A DNA stretch of 64,000 nt from an uncultured Candidatus Actinomarina sp. (GCA_902609285.1 CACLRL010000002.1:15421-79420), one strand, 5' to 3'. Positions 6,298-13,454 are shown, counted from the first letter of the stretch. A program made the numbers and translations. The notes: a model not told the origin generated them from the letters alone.

Positions 6298-6401
6298 ATT
6301 TTATTTTCTTTGAAATATTCAATAAAATTTTCTGCAATTTGATCGTCTGTTAAAGCTGTTGTAGGTTCGTTAACAAGAGAGTATCTACAGTTTTAGAAAA
6401 A

Positions 6402-6423
6402 ATGTGGGTGTTTTGTGGGTGTG
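6402..6423. repeat. Imperfect tandem 11-mer pair atgtgggtgtt/ttgtgggtgtg, 20 nt from the tRNA-Val repeat copy
   Basis: Read directly. Same position relative to the 61-nt core repeat as the pairs at 8043-8064 and 13319-13340. Confidence 0.6.
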
Positions 6424-6443
6424 AACAGTTTTTTTCTTACTAG

Positions 6444-6504
6444 ATTTCTGAAAAACCCTTGTGGGCGCTACAGGATTTGAACCTGTGACTTCTTCCTTGT
6501 AAGG
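6444..6504 (-). repeat. Direct-repeat copy: last 43 nt of tRNA-Val (6462-6504) plus 18-nt downstream flank; att-like scar
   Basis: 61/61 identical to 13363-13423 and 8086-8146. Confidence 0.9.
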
Positions 6505-6622
6505 TAAGAACCTTTATATTCGGCAACCTATGAAGACCTACGGCTATTTTTAGTCCAATGATTAATGGCTTATACGGATGCATCTGAAAGCATATGGAAA
6601 CCTATGGAAATAATTCTTTTAA

Positions 6623-6644
6623 AAAGTAGGGGGAAAGTAGGGGG
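6623..6644. repeat. Tandem 11-mer aaagtaggggg x2 (distal end of cassette A)
   Basis: 26-nt alignment of 6622-6647 against 8042-8067 has 2 mismatches, both at the same unit position. Confidence 0.8.
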
Positions 6645-6653
6645 AAATTTAAT

Positions 6654-7589
6654 TTATGGTCGGAAATATGGTGTTCTATCAAAAGTATCAAAAGAGGACC
6701 ATAGAAATGTATATGATGGATTTACCCAACCTAAGTTAACGGGGGCATCCCAGCCTAGCTGCCAAGCATAAGTCCCTACACCACCTACTACTCTATACTC
6801 AACTATTCCTGTCCATTTAGATGAATCAGAACCTTTTTTATAATCTTCTATTTGCAAAGTGATTTTATCAACAAAATAAAAGTACCCAGGATAAAAAAAG
6901 TTTGTATCATTAACTGGATCGTCATATCCGACCAAATCATAAATGTATTCAATCACTTCACCAAATTTCCAAGCTCTATAATCAAATTCAGTTAACAATA
7001 CTTCGTAATCACTATATCCAAAATCATTCACACAACGAATAGATAAATCTTTACAAGCTTGTAAAGTTATAGATACACCAGTCACTCTATAATCTTCAGG
7101 AACTTCAATAGATATTTCACCAAAAGCCCTATTTCCACCTGAATATGGAAGTGATAAACTAACATTAAAAATACCAGGAAAGTTATCGAAAAGAGATTTA
7201 CAACCTCCTCTTCTGGAAGCATCACAATTTTTGTCTTGCCATCCATTATTGATAACAAAATCACCTTCATAACCTCGAAAACCTTCATAAAAAGTCATAT
7301 CTAATTTATGTTGAAAATATTCTCTTTTAGTTTTAAAAACTGACAATCCATAACCCTCTTCAGCAATTGTTGTTGTCGTTGTCTTGGGAACAGTTGTTGT
7401 CGTTGTCTTGGGAACAGTTGTTGTCGTTGTCTTGGGAACAGTTGTAGAAGAAGTTACGACAGAAGGTGTTGTTTGATTTTCCACGGATGCTGAATTATTG
7501 GAACCTAATTCACCACCTATAATAATAAATAAAGCAAAAGCTAAAATCCATACCCCACTTATATTGGATATAAATTTATCTAATTTCAT
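6654..7589 (-). CDS. N-terminally anchored or secreted protein with Thr-rich repeat linker and Cys-containing aromatic-rich C-terminal domain, function unknown
   Basis: 311 aa. Hydrophobic N-terminus GVWILAFALFIIIGG. TTTTTVPK x3 linker. C-terminal ~230 aa carries two closely spaced Cys pairs (CDASRRGGC, CKDLSIRC). No enzymatic motif recognised. Confidence 0.6.
   Translation of the reverse strand: MKLDKFISNISGVWILAFALFIIIGGELGSNNSASVENQTTPSVVTSSTTVPKTTTTTVPKTTTTTVPKTTTTTIAEEGYGLSVFKTKREYFQHKLDMTFYEGFRGYEGDFVINNGWQDKNCDASRRGGCKSLFDNFPGIFNVSLSLPYSGGNRAFGEISIEVPEDYRVTGVSITLQACKDLSIRCVNDFGYSDYEVLLTEFDYRAWKFGEVIEYIYDLVGYDDPVNDTNFFYPGYFYFVDKITLQIEDYKKGSDSSKWTGIVEYRVVGGVGTYAWQLGWDAPVNLGWVNPSYTFLWSSFDTFDRTPYFRP
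7369..7440. repeat. Perfect 3 x 24 bp tandem repeat inside the CDS (encodes the TTTTTVPK units)
   Basis: The unit gttgttgtcgttgtcttgggaaca occurs at 7369-7392, 7393-7416 and 7417-7440 with no mismatch. Confidence 0.95.
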
Positions 7590-7600
7590 TACCTAAAAAA

Positions 7601-8014
7601 CTAATCATTAGCAAAGTTGATTATGCAAGATATATATGAAGATCTGAAATTTTCATCTAATACATCAACGTTAACTTCAAAACTATCGGGATAAATACCA
7701 CGTTCAGCAATAAAACCAAACCTTTTTGTTTCAAAAGCTTTTGGTAAATCAAAAAGATCTGATGACTCTATTTCTTTATCAATGTAGAATCTTGCTAGAT
7801 ACATTCCATTTTCAGTAATTAAAACAAATATATTTACAATATCTGAATTCCCAGCAGTTATATCAAACTCTAAACTAACCTCATCTTGAACAACAGGAGT
7901 ACTTGGACAAACAACACTTTTTATTAAAGGATTTGTCTTTGAGTAAATAAAAGCTGAGAGAGAAATAAATACTATAAAAAAAATTACAAAAGTTGAATCT
8001 TTAATTGCTTTCAT
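7601..8014 (-). CDS. Small secreted or membrane-anchored protein (137 aa), function unknown
   Basis: Hydrophobic N-terminus FVIFFIVFISLSAF. Lies 11 nt upstream of the 311-aa gene on the same strand. Confidence 0.55.
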   Translation of the reverse strand: MKAIKDSTFVIFFIVFISLSAFIYSKTNPLIKSVVCPSTPVVQDEVSLEFDITAGNSDIVNIFVLITENGMYLARFYIDKEIESSDLFDLPKAFETKRFGFIAERGIYPDSFEVNVDVLDENFRSSYISCIINFAND

Positions 8015-8042
8015 AATTTTATTCTATAAATAATATTCACCA

Positions 8043-8064
8043 AATGTAGGGGGAATGTAGGGGG
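8043..8064. repeat. Tandem 11-mer aatgtaggggg x2 (tRNA-proximal end of cassette A)
   Basis: Partner of 6623-6644. Lies 21 nt from the core repeat starting at 8086. Confidence 0.8.
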
Positions 8065-8085
8065 AAACGTCTGTTTTTGAATATG

Positions 8086-8150
8086 ATTTCTGAAAAACCC
8101 TTGTGGGCGCTACAGGATTTGAACCTGTGACTTCTTCCTTGTAAGGGAAG
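8086..8150 (-). repeat. Direct-repeat copy: last 47 nt of tRNA-Val (8104-8150) plus 18-nt downstream flank; att-like scar
   Basis: 65/65 identical to 13363-13427. Confidence 0.9.
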
Positions 8151-8262
8151 AACGATTAAATACTAGAGAGTATCGGAGAGTATCAAATTAGATCATCAAT
8201 ATATATAGGGCTTGTATCAGGTTGTACTAGATAGTATCAGACTATATCTCTAGTTTTTGACT

Positions 8263-8286
8263 CAAATGTGGGTCAAATGTGGGTCA
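8263..8286. repeat. 24-mer caaatgtgggtcaaatgtgggtca (tandem 11-mer aaatgtgggtc x2), distal end of cassette B
   Basis: 24/24 identical to 13318-13341. Confidence 0.9.
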
Positions 8287-8367
8287 GATTATCATTAATT
8301 TAGATTTAAAAAATCTAATTGATGCCATAGTAGAAGATTAGAGACAGCGTGTGATGCTATTTTTGAT

Positions 8368-10800
8368 TTAACTAAATAGATTACTTATAGTATTGTTAAT
8401 TAATTTCTCGTTCTTATTTATTATGTTTTTAAAACTTTGTAAGATTTCAAATTCTTTTTGTAGTTCACTAGAAATCTCCTTTTGAATCTCCAAACTAGGT
8501 AAGGGGATTTTAATTTTTCTTATTTCAACTAGGTGGAGATTAGTTACAGTACCAGATTTACTCAAATTCATTGCCTGTTTGTAAACAAAGCTAGAGTTAA
8601 GAATGTTTGCAAGAAAATTAGAATTCACTTTGTTTTTATCAGGTTTAATTAAGCATAAACTTACAAATATACTGAATTCATCTTCTCTAGTCACCAACTC
8701 CGCAACACCAATTGTTCCATTTTTTGAATAAAGAATATCTCCTTTTTCTGGATGACATCTTTTTATAAGTTCTGTGTGTTCCTCTTTTGAAATGTATTTA
8801 TTCTCTTTTGATGTTTTCGTGATATCGCTAACTCTTAAAAATGGAATGCCTTCACTTACATATTTAGGAGTTGCGTGAGTTCCATCTGTAATTTTTGTTG
8901 CTATGTCTTCTAGCGATACTAACTCCCAATCTGAATGTATTTCTATATTTGGCCTATAGTTCTCAACAACCTGCCTTGCTCCATCAATAACTTTTTGATA
9001 CTGCTCAATCTCTTCTACTATTTCTAGTTGTTTTTCTAAAGGTGGGAGTGGAATTAAAAGTTCTGCAAATTTTAAATTAATACCCGGTATGATTCCTTGA
9101 ATTTTGTTTTCTAGTGATCTTTGAAACTCTTCTGAGCGTAAGACATAATATAAATATTCAGGTATTAAATTTTCATTCGCTCTAAGAATGAATACATGCT
9201 CATTGATAGCCGCATTTTTAAACTCATTTTTATAAATACCTACTTTGCCTGTTGTTGCTCCATCTTTAACTATCAATACATCTTTATTGAGTAAAATCCC
9301 CTTTTTCATAGTTTTAAAAAATTCCTCGGAAACATATTTTTCTTTTTCAAAACTAATTTCACCTTTAGAAGTTATGTGCTGACCACCAAGAGATGGGATG
9401 CCCTTATTTTTTGCACCACCTTTCTCTCTTTTTCCTGACTCAATCTGCACTACTTTATTTAGTTCGATTAATTCAAAACTTGACTGCATGTTTACAGTTT
9501 TGTAATTATTAATTGCTAAAGATATATTTGAATCTTCAAGGACAATGTCTTTTGATATCTCCATATCATCGATTCTGGGTTCAAAAGATAAAATTGCAGA
9601 TATTACCTGTGGCAAATCATTTTGTTTTATTTTAGTTCTCTGATCGCCAAGTGAGTAGCCATCATTCTTTATTTCGTTGAAAAGGATAGTCTCTTTTTGC
9701 AATGACTTATTAATAAATAGTATTGATGTTTTTACTCCTGAATATGGTTTAAAAACTCCTGAAGGTAAAGAAACAACTGCAAACAAACCATTTTCTACTA
9801 ATTTTTTCCTAAGTTCTTTATAAGCTTTACCTGATTGAAAAATAATACCTTCAGGAACAATTATTCCAGCTCTACCTTTTGGCTTTAAGTGTGTAAGGAT
9901 GTAGTCAACAAACAGAGCTTCAGCTCTATTTGATTTAAGTCCAAATTTATTATGAGGTCTAATACCTCCTTTTGGAGTCATAAAAGGTGGATTAGCAAGA
10001 ATGACATCATAGTATTCACTCCACCTATCTTCTGAAGTTAACGCATCATATTCAACTACATTTGGTTCAGGAAATCCATGAAGATACATATTGGCAAGTC
10101 CAATTCGAACCATGTCTGGAGAGATGTCATAACCATTAATATTTTCCATTATTTTTTTTCGTTCAGCTGCAGAAAGTAAGTCTCCACTACTTTTCTCAGA
10201 GTTGGAGTTAACAATATGCTTAAATGCTGAAATTAAAAATCCTGAAGTTCCTGAGGCAGGATCTAAAACAGTTTCATCTTTTTTAGGATCAACTATTTCA
10301 ACAATAAAGTCAATAATGTGTCTTGGAGTTCTGAATTGTCCTGCATCTCCTTGAGAGCTAAGTGAGTTTAAAATATGCTCAAAAGCATCACCGAGTTGTT
10401 CAGAGTCTTTTGAGTAATCAAAATCATCAATCTGGCTTAAAAAGAGTCTTAGTGTTTCAGCATCCTTATAAGGTATATAGGCATTTTTAAATATATCTCT
10501 AAAGAGTTGTGGGATATAAGGATTTTCCTCCATTGACTCAACTGCTGTTGAATACAGGTCTACCAGCTCACTTCCAGAAACCTTTGTACCAAATAAATTG
10601 TCCCAAGAATACTTTTCAAAGTCGCCAACAAAAAATGAAGCCTCTCCGCCTAAGTCTGTAGATTCTTTGTCCATATCATTCATGAATTTGTAAATTAATG
10701 CAATCATGATTTGCTCTACTTGGCTTTTTGGATCTGGAACTTTTCCTACGAGAGTATCTCGAAGGTCATTAATTTTTTTCTTTGTCTCTTGGTCTAACAT
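8368..10800 (-). CDS. hsdMS: Type I restriction-modification methyltransferase fused to specificity subunit (HsdM-HsdS fusion, 810 aa)
   Basis: The N-terminal ~440 aa carry AdoMet motif I DPASGTSGFL and catalytic motif IV NPPF (ILANPPFMTPKGG). The C-terminal ~370 aa carry two target-recognition-domain-like repeats, each ending in a conserved helix (IPLPPLEKQLEIVEEIE and IPLPSLEIQKEISSEL). Confidence 0.85.
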   Translation of the reverse strand: MLDQETKKKINDLRDTLVGKVPDPKSQVEQIMIALIYKFMNDMDKESTDLGGEASFFVGDFEKYSWDNLFGTKVSGSELVDLYSTAVESMEENPYIPQLFRDIFKNAYIPYKDAETLRLFLSQIDDFDYSKDSEQLGDAFEHILNSLSSQGDAGQFRTPRHIIDFIVEIVDPKKDETVLDPASGTSGFLISAFKHIVNSNSEKSSGDLLSAAERKKIMENINGYDISPDMVRIGLANMYLHGFPEPNVVEYDALTSEDRWSEYYDVILANPPFMTPKGGIRPHNKFGLKSNRAEALFVDYILTHLKPKGRAGIIVPEGIIFQSGKAYKELRKKLVENGLFAVVSLPSGVFKPYSGVKTSILFINKSLQKETILFNEIKNDGYSLGDQRTKIKQNDLPQVISAILSFEPRIDDMEISKDIVLEDSNISLAINNYKTVNMQSSFELIELNKVVQIESGKREKGGAKNKGIPSLGGQHITSKGEISFEKEKYVSEEFFKTMKKGILLNKDVLIVKDGATTGKVGIYKNEFKNAAINEHVFILRANENLIPEYLYYVLRSEEFQRSLENKIQGIIPGINLKFAELLIPLPPLEKQLEIVEEIEQYQKVIDGARQVVENYRPNIEIHSDWELVSLEDIATKITDGTHATPKYVSEGIPFLRVSDITKTSKENKYISKEEHTELIKRCHPEKGDILYSKNGTIGVAELVTREDEFSIFVSLCLIKPDKNKVNSNFLANILNSSFVYKQAMNLSKSGTVTNLHLVEIRKIKIPLPSLEIQKEISSELQKEFEILQSFKNIINKNEKLINNTISNLFS

Positions 10801-13290
10801 CTATGCAAACTTTTCAATCTCTATATTATTTTTTATATATGACAATATTGTATCCCTCATACCCTCAGGTATTGCTTTAAAATGCTCTAATAAATTAGAG
10901 GAGTGTGTATTGAGATCTGCATATTTTCTACTATCAATAATCTCTCTTACTTCTTTATCCACTAAGTAAGTCTCAAAGAAATAACGAACACTTCTAAAAT
11001 ACACTTCATCTGGTTGGTGTTCATTATCAAACTTATCAAAAGCCTCTTCAAGTTGTTCCTTTTTTGATTTAATTCTGTCGGTAAACCCAAAGCTGTACAT
11101 CAAAATATCCAATACAGATAGCTTTCTGTCAGTCTTTAATGCAATCTCAAGATTTTTAAGCGTGAAGTACTCCTCAGGCTTATCAAATACTTTTTTAGCT
11201 AAGTACTCTTCTATTTTTGACACTTCTCCAAGCTCAACCAGTTCTCTTAATTCTGGATGGTCTTGAATAGTATCTATAAATCTATCAAAATATACTTGAT
11301 CAATTTTCATTCCCTGAGTGGTTAAAGGAATTTCTTCTAGTGATTTAAGTGGGTCTAAAACATAGCTTTCAGCTGTATCTAGCTCTGGTGTATCAATATC
11401 TATAGGAGGTTCTCCAGGCTTAGAGGGTTTAGCTGGTAGTTTCAGCTTTTGGTCATAATCAAACTCTTTTTCAAAATATTCATAATTTCCGAAGAAATCG
11501 AAGAGTGCAAAATCATGTTTTATAGAATTAATAGCTTCATTGACTTCGTCTTTATCTATCCAATCCTCGCTAAAGTCTTTTCTTCTTGTGCCTCTTCCTT
11601 TCATCTGAATAAAGTCTGATGGAGAGTAAATTGGTCTCATCATGGCAATATTTAATAAATCTGTACAGTCATAACCTGTGGTCATCATCCCCACTGTGAC
11701 ACATACTCTTGTCTTAGAAGTTCTGTAATACTCGTTTACTGTAGAAAATCCATTGAGTGTGTTGTTTGCAAAATCTACTGTCATTTGTTGCGAGCCCATT
11801 ACATTAGAAGTCACTTGAACTGCAAAATCGCTTTGATATTTATTTGGAAACATCTCAAGTGCATACTCGTTCAAAATCTGAGTTACTTTTGCTGCATGCT
11901 TTTGTGAGACACAGAATATTAAAGATTTCCCTATCTCTCCTGTGTAGGGATCTTTTCTTGCATTCTGTAAAAAGGTCTCGCAGAATTTTCTATTTGTCTC
12001 CTCAGAGAAAAACTTCTTTTCAAAATCTTTCTTGGTAAATGTCTCTTCGACATCATTACCATCTTCATCGGTGCCTTCAAAAAGATACCCTTCTTCACTC
12101 AGTAACTCTGTTGTGATATCTGTTCGTGCATCGTATACAAATGGATTGATAAGAAACCCCTCTTTAACACCATCTAAAAGAGAGTACCTAAAAGTAGGTT
12201 CGCCACTTCTACATCCAAAAGTTGTATAGGTATCTAACATCATTCTACGCTCTAACTCTCTTGGATCTCTCTCAGTTAAGCCAGAGATATTGACTGACTT
12301 TAAATAGTCTTTTGGTGTTGCAGTAAGTCCTAATTTAAATCCAACAAAGTACTCAAATACTCTTCTGCTTTTTCTACCTAAAGACCTATGTGCTTCGTCT
12401 GAGATAACGAGATCAAAATCACTTGGTTTGAATATTCTCTTATATTTATTGTCAGAAATAAAAGACTGAACAGTAGAGACAACGATCTGTGCACTATTCC
12501 AATTCTTGGAGTTTTCTTTCCAAATTACTGTGGTGTAATCATTTTTCAGAACCTTATTGAACTCTTTTTGAGCTTGTGTCTCAAGTTCTAATCTATCAAC
12601 AAGAAACAAGACTCGTTTTACACCAAAATTGCGTAAAAACATTTTGATAATCGCACTAGAGGTAAGAGTTTTACCTGTACCTGTTGCCATCTCTAAAAGA
12701 AAACGCTCTGAACCCTCTTGAACGCCTTTTTGGATAGTAAGTAATGCCTCTAATTGATATTTTCTTAAAAACCTTAAACCATTGCTAAATATGAACTCTT
12801 CTCTAGTTGATTCGTCTTTGTATTCTGGCTTATTTGCGTAATCAGGCATCTGAGACAATGCAATATAATCATTTCCTATCTCATCAATGTTCTCTTTGTC
12901 CTGATGTGGATTGAATCCTTCTTTTCTATCTTCAAGATTTCTTTGTTGTGGAAACTCTCCGATAGTGTTTGGATTGCCAGTTTCAATATCCCAGAAATAG
13001 TGCTCTCGTCCATTTGAAAGAATAATAAAGCGACAATTGAGTGCATTGGCATACTCTCTTGCTTGTTCTTTTGCTGAAAGTGGATCTATATCAAAATTTT
13101 TAGCTTCTAAAACACATAGAGGAAATCCATCTGAATCCATTAAGACATAATCTGCAGGTTTGCCTATGGGTGTTCTGTACTCGACTTCTACATTGTGTTG
13201 GTCAGAATCAGCATCAAGAACCCAACCAGTTTGTGCAAGCATTGCATTGATCTGAATTCTACTTTGAGCTTCATTTTTACTAGCAACCAT
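10801..13290 (-). CDS. hsdR: Type I restriction enzyme R subunit (HsdR, EcoEI-like C-terminus)
   Basis: N-terminal PD-(D/E)xK region (ADYVLMDSDG...VLEAKNFD). Helicase motifs MATGTGKT, DEAH (VISDEAHRS), TATP and MKGRGTRR. Stop TAG directly abuts the hsdMS ATG. Start placed at the internal ATG (MVASKNEAQ, 13290) rather than the ORF-track 13320, which would run into the 24-mer repeat. Confidence 0.85.
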   Translation of the reverse strand: MVASKNEAQSRIQINAMLAQTGWVLDADSDQHNVEVEYRTPIGKPADYVLMDSDGFPLCVLEAKNFDIDPLSAKEQAREYANALNCRFIILSNGREHYFWDIETGNPNTIGEFPQQRNLEDRKEGFNPHQDKENIDEIGNDYIALSQMPDYANKPEYKDESTREEFIFSNGLRFLRKYQLEALLTIQKGVQEGSERFLLEMATGTGKTLTSSAIIKMFLRNFGVKRVLFLVDRLELETQAQKEFNKVLKNDYTTVIWKENSKNWNSAQIVVSTVQSFISDNKYKRIFKPSDFDLVISDEAHRSLGRKSRRVFEYFVGFKLGLTATPKDYLKSVNISGLTERDPRELERRMMLDTYTTFGCRSGEPTFRYSLLDGVKEGFLINPFVYDARTDITTELLSEEGYLFEGTDEDGNDVEETFTKKDFEKKFFSEETNRKFCETFLQNARKDPYTGEIGKSLIFCVSQKHAAKVTQILNEYALEMFPNKYQSDFAVQVTSNVMGSQQMTVDFANNTLNGFSTVNEYYRTSKTRVCVTVGMMTTGYDCTDLLNIAMMRPIYSPSDFIQMKGRGTRRKDFSEDWIDKDEVNEAINSIKHDFALFDFFGNYEYFEKEFDYDQKLKLPAKPSKPGEPPIDIDTPELDTAESYVLDPLKSLEEIPLTTQGMKIDQVYFDRFIDTIQDHPELRELVELGEVSKIEEYLAKKVFDKPEEYFTLKNLEIALKTDRKLSVLDILMYSFGFTDRIKSKKEQLEEAFDKFDNEHQPDEVYFRSVRYFFETYLVDKEVREIIDSRKYADLNTHSSNLLEHFKAIPEGMRDTILSYIKNNIEIEKFA

Positions 13291-13317
13291 TACGCAATTA
13301 TAAACTATGAATGAATG

Positions 13318-13341
13318 CAAATGTGGGTCAAATGTGGGTCA
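13318..13341. repeat. 24-mer caaatgtgggtcaaatgtgggtca (tandem 11-mer x2), tRNA-proximal end of cassette B
   Basis: Identical to 8263-8286. Lies 22 nt from the core repeat starting at 13363. Confidence 0.9.
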
Positions 13342-13380
13342 CTTTGAATTTTTTCTTACTGTATTTCTGAAAAACCCTTG

Positions 13381-13454
13381 TGGGCGCTACAGGATTTGAA
13401 CCTGTGACTTCTTCCTTGTAAGGGAAGTGCTCTGCCAGACTGAGCTAAGCGCCC
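13381..13454 (-). tRNA. tRNA-Val (anticodon TAC), 74 nt, no encoded CCA
   Basis: Hand-folded. Acceptor GGGCGCT/AGCGCCC, D stem GCTC/GAGC, anticodon stem CTTCC/GGAAG with loop CTTACAA, T arm ACAGG-TTCAAAT-CCTGT, discriminator A. Confidence 0.9.

Follow-up and report, generated by a model that had tools for sequence, protein, structure and literature searches.

The envelope-glycosylation island of Candidatus Actinomarina, which is the flexible genomic island 1 (fGI1), or tRNA-bounded hypervariable region, of the literature, is represented here by a stretch of 64,000 nucleotides (the window) from an uncultured Candidatus Actinomarina sp. (GCA_902609285.1 CACLRL010000002.1:15421-79420), in which an array of cassettes adjoins a tRNA-Val gene at 6,444-13,454. 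In the Ca. Actinomarinales, fGI1 carries envelope glycosylation genes and five tRNAs (Val, Phe, Asp, Lys, and Arg; Lopez-Perez et al. 2020, PMC7771536), all five of which are also present in this window. The same study had already described small cassettes bounded by direct repeats of a partial tRNA, without a mechanism, and states that identifiable mobile elements are absent, the word "integrase" not occurring in the paper (PMC7771536). A preprint of 2026 ("Actinomarina, resolved", bioRxiv), covering 84 complete genomes, confirms the tRNA-bounded hypervariable region and regards the mechanism of integration as still to be identified. The arm iterons, the cognate integrase family, and the circular elements reported below are not described in these papers. 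The array is probably a stack of non-autonomous integrative cassettes that are moved in trans by cognate integrases: the cargo of each cassette lies flush between the two arms of a complete attachment site of the lambda/L5 type, and the matching integrase is encoded by satellite-like elements of 6-8 kb, and not by the cassettes or the window.

Parts of this anatomy are found in several known systems. The cis-mobilizable elements (CIMEs) are related to ICESt1 and ICESt3 of Streptococcus thermophilus, and the cassettes resemble them in the relation of their attL and attR sites to the sites of an autonomous element, in lacking genes for recombination and transfer, in standing in tandem at one site, and in the partner integrase that is proposed for them. 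The partners of the cassettes, by contrast, are satellite-like and have no conjugation module, a single core is common to many orthogonal arm specificities, and the matched iterons on both arms speak for excision by a cognate integrase acting in trans, rather than for accretion with a neighbor. Phage lambda and mycobacteriophage L5 have an attP with paired, adjacent arm-type sites on both arms, the core of L5 lying in a tRNA-Gly gene, and heterobivalent integrases (structures 1z1b and 6en2). The attachment site reconstructed here, of ~245 bp, likewise has a tRNA core and adjacent pairs of arm sites, and its integrase is predicted to consist of N-terminal arm-binding, core-binding, and catalytic domains. 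It differs from the lambda and L5 sites in the existence of at least 15 arm-site variants on one core, each with a matching integrase N-domain, in the invariant Cys6, Cys11, and His32 of this domain, and in the persistence of the arm sites on integrase-less cargo.

The tycheposons of Prochlorococcus (bioRxiv 10.1101/2020.12.28.424599) are also small integrase-bearing elements that target tRNAs in a streamlined marine host and are associated with partial tRNA repeats, and in both cases only a small part of the island material is made up of intact elements (3.6% in the tycheposons). The host phylum is different, and the likeness is one of layout. None of the tycheposon hallmark genes (tyrosine recombinase of the tycheposon clade, replication module) was found in the window. 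The text on the tycheposons (10.1101/2020.12.28.424599) has no word beginning with "arm", so that arm-type sites are apparently not described in it, and no search was made there for integrase-less cassettes that have complete att arms. Satellites similar to the phage-inducible chromosomal islands (PICIs) and the marine virion-encapsidated integrative mobile elements (VEIMEs; PMC9618062) resemble the helper elements in their size (6-8 kb), integrase, small regulators, small-terminase-like gene, DUF3631 gene, defense cargo, and circles from marine metagenomes. The helpers, known here from their sequences, gave no sign of a helper phage or of encapsidation, and the window holds only integrase-less derivatives; the main text of Eppley et al. 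2022 (PMC9618062), taken without its supplementary host tables, does not mention Actinomarina, Actinobacteria, or tRNA. The likeness to integrons is functional, in that promoter-poor cassettes with their own recombination sites are stacked on a fixed chromosomal platform, whereas intI, attI, and attC hairpins are lacking, and the sites are tRNA-derived cores with lambda-type arms. The kind is a known one, that of non-autonomous att-flanked elements and additive tRNA islands, whereas the many orthogonal arm specificities on one tRNA core, and the cargo-only cassettes that far outnumber their satellite-like helpers, are new.

The cassette array

Direct repeats of the 3' part of the tRNA-Val gene bound both inserts, and the intact tRNA is regenerated at one end of the array:
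13380-13454, minus strand: intact tRNA-Val(TAC) by ARAGORN (Rfam tRNA model at 13381-13454, 74 bits)
13363-13423, plus strand: att copy 3, the tRNA-proximal junction, an exact 61-nt match
8086-8150, plus strand: att copy 2, the junction of cassettes 1 and 2, 65 nt identical to the tRNA side
6444-6504, plus strand: att copy 1, the distal end of the array, an exact 61-nt match

The three exact copies of the 61-nt string reported in the initial annotation, as well as the continuation of the middle copy to 8150, were recovered by an exact search (6444-6504, 8086-8146, and 13363-13423, in direct orientation, with 0 mismatches, against 0 expected from 100 shuffles). The identity and strand given there for the tRNA-Val(TAC) are also correct, its start at 13381 being that of Rfam, while ARAGORN places it at 13380. 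The string is composed of 18 nt of downstream flank and the tRNA-Val from its 3' end through the anticodon loop, and the boundary of the repeat therefore falls at the anticodon stem-loop (CTTCC TTGTAAG GGAAG). The 3' 44 nt of the tRNA gene (13380-13423) are part of att copy 3, and were therefore supplied by the last element to integrate. No further degenerate copy of the core was found in the window with a tolerance of up to 11 substitutions in 42 positions. A recent duplication framing the array was discarded as an explanation, given that the flanking glycosyltransferases are distant paralogs (26% identity). Four more tRNAs (Phe, Asp, Lys, and Arg) were placed by ARAGORN to the right of tRNA-Val, and these have no partial copies within the window.

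The two segments delimited by the repeats hold four genes:
10801-13290, minus strand: HsdR, type I restriction subunit, cargo of cassette 2 (Pfam ResIII, 1.2e-38, and HSDR_N_2)
8368-10800, minus strand: fused HsdM-HsdS, cargo of cassette 2 (Pfam N6_Mtase and two Methylase_S stretches)
7601-8014, minus strand: protein of 137 aa without a Pfam match, with a hydrophobic segment at its N-terminus, cargo of cassette 1
6654-7589, minus strand: protein of 311 aa with a hydrophobic segment at its N-terminus, followed by a Thr/Pro-rich tandem repeat, cargo of cassette 1

The Pfam matches and the hydrophobic segments agree with the earlier assignment of a type I restriction-modification (RM) system to 8151-13362 and of two secreted proteins to 6505-8085, neither of which has an informative domain. 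The ATG of HsdR at 13290 was reasoned from the sequence, the mechanical start of the open reading frame (ORF) being a TTG at 13320. The HsdM-HsdS fusion is an 810-aa ORF that is fused likewise in all its close homologs, and the tandem 24-nt repeats of the 311-aa ORF (7345-7464) encode TTVPKTTT units, which form a Thr/Pro-rich linker after the hydrophobic segment. The GC content is 30-35% in the two cassettes (at 6-13 kb) and ~24-29% in the glycosylation island.

The absence of a recombinase from both segments and from the 64 kb as a whole, as originally claimed, was confirmed by three approaches. No recombinase or transposase was identified by Pfam among 50 ORFs of the window, where the matches were to glycosyltransferases, sugar epimerases and dehydratases, aminotransferases, an O-antigen-ligase-like protein, an acyltransferase, an ABC exporter, and the like. 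A six-frame profile search of the window with a hidden Markov model (HMM) of the integrase family described below, with all filters off, reached an E-value of only 0.08-0.11 at best, and a regular-expression screen for HxLRH and serine-recombinase motifs returned nothing credible. This screen also missed a genuine integrase (that of locus L066, with the motif YDLRH), and was replaced by the family HMM and tblastn. A tyrosine recombinase is thus encoded by neither cassette nor by the window, and is confined to related elements in other places, such as L066 and L097.

Arms and iterons of the cassettes

Both ends of a cassette carry a pair of 8-nt motifs (iterons) that is particular to that cassette, in direct orientation and with a period of 11 nt. 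The pairs lie ~19-23 nt from the 61-nt repeat on the tRNA-proximal (P) arm and 116-121 nt from it on the distal (P') arm:
13318-13362, plus strand: P arm of cassette 2, with the pair TGTGGGTC-aaa-TGTGGGTC at 13322-13339, then a 23-nt spacer
8151-8286, plus strand: P' arm of cassette 2, ending in two copies of TGTGGGTC (8267-8284), 116 nt from the core
8042-8085, plus strand: P arm of cassette 1, with the pair GTAGGGGG-aat-GTAGGGGG at 8046-8066, then a 19-nt spacer
6505-6647, plus strand: P' arm of cassette 1, of the subfamily A type, ending in two copies of GTAGGGGG (6626-6646), 121 nt from the core
6376-6443, plus strand: cargo-less remnant of a third element, formed by the last 25 nt of a P' arm, two copies of TGTGGGTG (6403-6420), and a complete P arm

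The iterons of the arms and the cargo-less remnant are new to the description of this array, and were absent from the earlier reading. A circularized cassette would read, in order, an iteron pair, ~23 nt, the 61-nt core, ~116 nt of P' backbone, and the same iteron pair, which gives the attP of ~245 bp, with paired arm-type sites. Iteron pairs, in the manner of arm-type sites and distinct from the core, are found on both arms at fixed distances (~-23 and ~+116) in the cassettes and in the circular attP forms described below.

The P' arm of cassette 2 has a conserved backbone, with GTATC(A/G)G motifs every ~10 nt. In cassette 1, the P arm has a near-identical counterpart in locus L028, and the P' arm shares 85% identity with those of L028 and L052. 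The spacing from iteron to core in the remnant (23 nt) is that of cassette 2, and the remnant matches the P' end of L026 at 100% in its P' part and the P arms of L063, L037, and L015 at 98% in its P arm; no fourth att copy was found to its left in a search allowing 11 substitutions, its distal core being gone.

No copy of the cargo of either cassette was found in any other locus that was retrieved, the matches being limited to the arms. The closest RM homologs of the cargo of cassette 2 (71-83% identity) occur in other contexts, without arms. The homology stops ~12 nt short of the P iteron and ~35 nt short of the P' iteron, which places the RM module flush between the arms. The nearest homologs of hsdM-S (L118-L120), considered as a second copy of the cassette, were rejected for their lack of arms, and serve only to set the limits of the cargo module. 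The ~50 nt downstream of hsdM-S (AATCTAATTGMTGCCATAGTAGAAGATTAGAGACAGCGTGTGAYGCTA; 8300-8367 in the window, and also in L119 and L120), which contain a short inverted repeat (TCTAAT/ATTAGA), accompany the RM module in unrelated contexts.

Other functions were considered for the iterons. A role as promoter or operator sites of hsdR was rejected, since a second pair lies downstream of the operon and the layout is identical around unrelated cargo, as was an origin as target-site duplications, since the iterons are internally tandem, stand at a fixed distance from the core, and are present in the circular attP forms. Rfam identified no known RNA in the arms.

Recurrence and polymorphism in other Actinomarina genomes

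An exact scan of species-representative genomes for a 42-nt part of the tRNA recovered 68 blocks, nearly all of them from single amplified genomes (SAGs) and metagenome-assembled genomes (MAGs) of Candidatus Actinomarina/OCS155, many with two or three copies. Of the proteins of the window that were looked up by exact match, most had no record, and one was found on a Tara Oceans contig. Nearly every copy of the core in these blocks is preceded by an iteron pair at an equal distance, with a motif that varies by element (TGTGGGTC, TGTGGGTG, TGTGCGGT, TGTTCGGT, GGTGTC, TGTGTGTC, GGGCGTC, TGTGCGTG, TGTGTGTG, TGTGGGGT, ACGCGTC, and GTAGGGG). A string of at least 10 nt is common to the P' and P iteron positions in 23 of the 25 elements with two cores, as against 58 of 600 mismatched pairings. 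The alignment of 31 P' arms revealed conserved blocks with GTATCAG-type motifs ~10 nt apart, in which the iterons are in register, but variable in sequence, and the similarity breaks off just past them.

The locus is highly variable among relatives, so that the invariance which, according to the initial annotation, would have refuted its reading is not observed. Three of the 40 intact tRNA-Val loci are apparently empty and 37 are occupied, with alternative alleles of one, two, or three cassettes of differing cargo. Near-identical integrase-less cassettes are shared by L028 and L032 (99.2% over 1194 nt), the left neighbors of which differ, and by L011 and L019 (98.2% over 727 nt), the hosts in each case being different GTDB species representatives, and this near-identity across species is best explained by recent horizontal spread. 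Locus L002 has 607 nt of the L011/L019 cassette inside a larger cassette.

The same recurrence makes an artefact of assembly, or a chimera, an extremely remote explanation. Repeats can mislead short-read assemblers, but those of the array, at 61-65 nt, are below the typical read length, each junction has a distinct and internally consistent arm, and arrays of this architecture are found in dozens of independent SAGs and long-read MAGs.

Integrase-bearing elements

In L066 (SAG AG-891-I09), a 5.9-kb element adjoining the tRNA-Val encodes a 366-aa tyrosine integrase (PF00589, 5e-19; PF14659), together with an HTH_3 protein, a DUF3631 protein, and a protein with weak similarity to helix-turn-helix (HTH) proteins and small terminases, and has AGTGGGGG pairs in both arms. 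This integrase is the only member of its family found in the 68 genome blocks and the window. A search of protein collections yielded 24 related integrase clusters (42-100% identity). All of these come from marine metagenomes, and most of their contigs measure ~6 kb. A metagenome scan provided 48 loci, in ~25 of which a tRNA-Val core adjoins the integrase gene. Seven loci have terminal overlaps, and six of these (99-127 nt) were treated as circular; the core was matched in three of the six circular contigs (L075, L101, and L111), where it is taken to be a single attP. Wherever both arms of an attP are present, the architecture is the common one and the two arms have the identical iteron. The IMG/VR scans with the 42-nt core, a 28-nt piece of the core, and the core-P' junction produced no match.

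These elements, of 6-8 kb, encode the integrase (Int), small HTH proteins, DUF3631, and a small-terminase-like (TerS-like) protein, often with defense cargo, and no conjugation genes were found in them. Locus L097, for example, encodes a small-terminase-like protein (phrog_4102, 4.9e-17) alongside Int, DUF3631, and small ORFs, with a cargo of an EcoRI-like methylase and a GmrSD/HNH nuclease adjoining the P' arm, a gene content that marks it as a putative PICI-like satellite with defense cargo. Just past the P' iteron of L097 (~830-880), L102, L093, L071, and L111 is a conserved inverted repeat, GACCCC..GTGTCAATGT..GGGGGG, followed by TATAT, which occurs only in the integrase-bearing elements, and not in the cassettes of the window, and is a candidate origin or packaging site. 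Members of the integrase family in L073 (2107-2424) and L079 (3857-4300) adjoin another tRNA-like core, with an anticodon loop that reads Ile(GAT), the iteron being TGTAGGGG in L073 and the related TAGTAGGGG in L079; judging from these sequences, the specificities of core and arm seem, therefore, to assort independently.

The position of the cargo beside the P' arm in autonomous elements such as L097 (methyltransferase and GmrSD/HNH) means that one internal deletion could produce a cassette of cargo and arms. The cassettes might, then, be immobile relics of integrated satellite-like elements, in which the core genes were deleted, the arms are intact through recency, and nothing moves them at present. 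The remnant at 6376-6443 demonstrates that decay by deletion does happen, and the integrase elements are rare. This explanation is nevertheless unlikely: no fragments of integrase pseudogenes were found in the window or the 68 genome blocks, the end points of the supposed deletions would be flush with the iterons in many independent cassettes, matched and perfect iteron pairs are kept in 23 of the 25 elements, and near-identical integrase-less cassettes occur across species beside differing neighbors.

Correspondence between iterons and integrases

The sequence of the iteron covaries with the residues of the N-terminal strands of the integrase:
L097: N-terminal RYRVRWRDKAGKQKSLH, iteron TGTGGGTC
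L103-107: N-terminal RYRVRWYDKAGKEKSLH, iteron AGCGGGTC
L092/93/102: N-terminal RYNVRWRDKAGKQKF, iteron TGTGTGTG
L100/101: N-terminal KYVVRWRDKAGKQKTRH, iteron TGTGCGTTT
L071/73: N-terminal KYFVRYKTRSG, iteron TGTAGGGG
L066: N-terminal KYVVRYKDRAGKVKEKH, iteron AGTGGGGG
L085/86: N-terminal KYLVSYKDRYGKWREKH, iteron ATCAGGGGG
L087/88: N-terminal VYFISYKDRYGKWREKH, iteron ATCGGGGGG

An AlphaFold model (predicted local distance difference test, pLDDT, of 81) places three strands and a helix, at residues 4-52, before the domains for core binding and catalysis, an arrangement that would be that of a heterobivalent integrase. The best structural matches in Foldseek are the full-length lambda Int, over 335-373 columns, and the Tn1549 Int (E 9e-16), both of them heterobivalent, and Pfam assigns PF14659/PF22022 and PF00589 to the integrases of the family. 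In the family alignment, the invariant Cys and His residues are usually joined by a third Cys within residues 1-35, and the location of this set in the predicted arm-binding domain suggests a metal-stabilized variant of the fold. The position of the iterons, their covariation with the integrase, and the predicted fold all point to arm-type sites that are read by the integrase N-domain.

The covariation also bears on the possibility that no site-specific recombinase was involved, and that imported DNA was integrated by RecA through the conserved inter-cassette unit of ~200 nt (core and arm backbones). In its favor, the cassettes have identical 61-nt cores and P' backbones that are conserved at 70-85% from one to another, the cassette segment found inside L002 suggests recombinational reshuffling, and double-crossover replacement is an accepted mode of exchange for the glycosylation islands of other taxa (PMC7771536). 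Homologous recombination would, however, leave unexplained both the element-specific iteron common to the two ends of a cassette and its tracking of the integrase N-domain, and the direct duplication of the 3' part of the tRNA is the signature of a circle integrating by a single site-specific crossover, all of which makes this origin quite improbable.

The cassettes of the window can be compared with particular elements on this basis. The P arm of cassette 2 shares 97.8% identity over 45 nt with the P arm of L097 and L112, located downstream of their integrase gene, and its P' arm has the same start, motif layout, spacing, and iteron as theirs. Cassette 1, with its GTAGGGGG iterons, is similar in iterons and P' arm to L071, the iteron of which is TGTAGGGG, and the TGTGGGTG of the remnant matches L113.

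Proposed mechanism

The core-type sites would come from the anticodon stem (CTTCC/GGAAG), and the overlap region, in which the crossover would occur, from the 7-nt anticodon loop, while the iterons would act as arm-type sites for the N-terminal domain of a heterobivalent tyrosine integrase. A cognate integrase, provided in trans, would both excise and integrate the cassettes, and successive integrations at the tRNA or at its partial copies would stack them into an additive island. An integrase of the L097/L112 type would be the partner of cassette 2, one similar to that of L071 the partner of cassette 1, and one similar to that of L113 the partner of the remnant. The cassettes of the window are, or were, presumably moved in this way, and the flush, matched arms and the cross-species identity of the cassettes are less consistent with relics, homologous recombination, or an artefact.

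The initial annotation had proposed an integrase supplied in trans and an additive island at the tRNA, which the candidate integrases, the variable locus, and the cassettes shared across species now support, with excision itself being inferred. Its description of the cassettes as CIME-like is apt insofar as they lack recombination and transfer modules and are flanked by attL and attR sites homologous to those of autonomous elements, but does not extend to the partners, which are satellite-like rather than conjugative. The perfect identity of the repeats, which had been read as a sign of recency, is weak evidence of this, because every incoming element must carry a functional 3' half of the tRNA. 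Nor is the phenomenon unusual in this lineage, for which it was published in 2020 (PMC7771536).

A number of points weigh against mobilization in trans. No excised circle, empty-site junction, or transfer of an integrase-less cassette was observed, and the 64 kb covered are only part of the genome, the rest of which may or may not hold a cognate integrase. An integrase element occupies only one of ~40 genome loci, and opportunities for mobilization in trans would therefore be rare. The binding of the iterons by the N-domain is deduced from covariation and a predicted fold, and two of the three P' backbones (B1, and B3, the type of the window) were observed, within the sample, in integrase-less cassettes only. 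Cassette 1 has, in its P arm, a distance of 38-40 nt from iteron to core, in comparison with ~60 nt in its nearest integrase-bearing counterparts, L066 and L071, a shortfall of ~20 nt, or roughly two helical turns, and its 19-nt flank is that of the other subfamily; this architecture is common to L028 and L052, and the mismatch renders the cognate assignment of cassette 1 tentative.

A bolder possibility, for which the odds are somewhat less than even, is that the one tRNA-Val core and its iteron variants constitute a set of orthogonal "address labels", each read by a co-diversified and possibly zinc-binding integrase N-domain, with each type of integrase mobilizing only its own pool of cassettes. 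If so, this would be a population-level, integron-like network for the distribution of cassettes, built from lambda-type att arms. The network would assemble the defense and envelope island of a marine bacterium that ranks among the most abundant, and its cargo-only cassettes would propagate as independent lineages, in numbers far beyond those of their helpers.

Hypervariable tRNA-bounded islands are common to streamlined marine bacteria, such as Actinomarina, Pelagibacter, and Prochlorococcus. The anatomy described here addresses the question of the integration mechanism raised in the Actinomarina literature, and suggests how the variable island is built, in a concrete and testable form, with an attP of defined size, candidate integrases, and a readable relation between iteron and integrase. 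The combination of rare helpers with abundant cargo-only cassettes would explain how near-integrase-free genomes continue to gain defense and surface genes, and the iteron variants represent a natural panel of orthogonal pairs of integrases and arm sites.

Other partial copies of the tRNA-Val gene

Partial copies of the tRNA-Val of 52 nt, which extend 9 nt further into the tRNA ("GAAGCGCTC", then unrelated sequence), are found in L015 (at 1280), L039 (5909), L062, L030, L049, L043 (5167), L068, L023, and L118 (3361-3409). The distance from these copies to the true tRNA-Val is ~370 kb, and no tRNA lies close to them; they adjoin type I RM genes in L015 and L118 and a rhodanese gene in L043. They have the appearance of a secondary attachment site, which is probably the second RM island reported for some genera. 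In the island of a relative, L118 also contains, at 11330-11590, a long run of short repeats of the CACACACC type.

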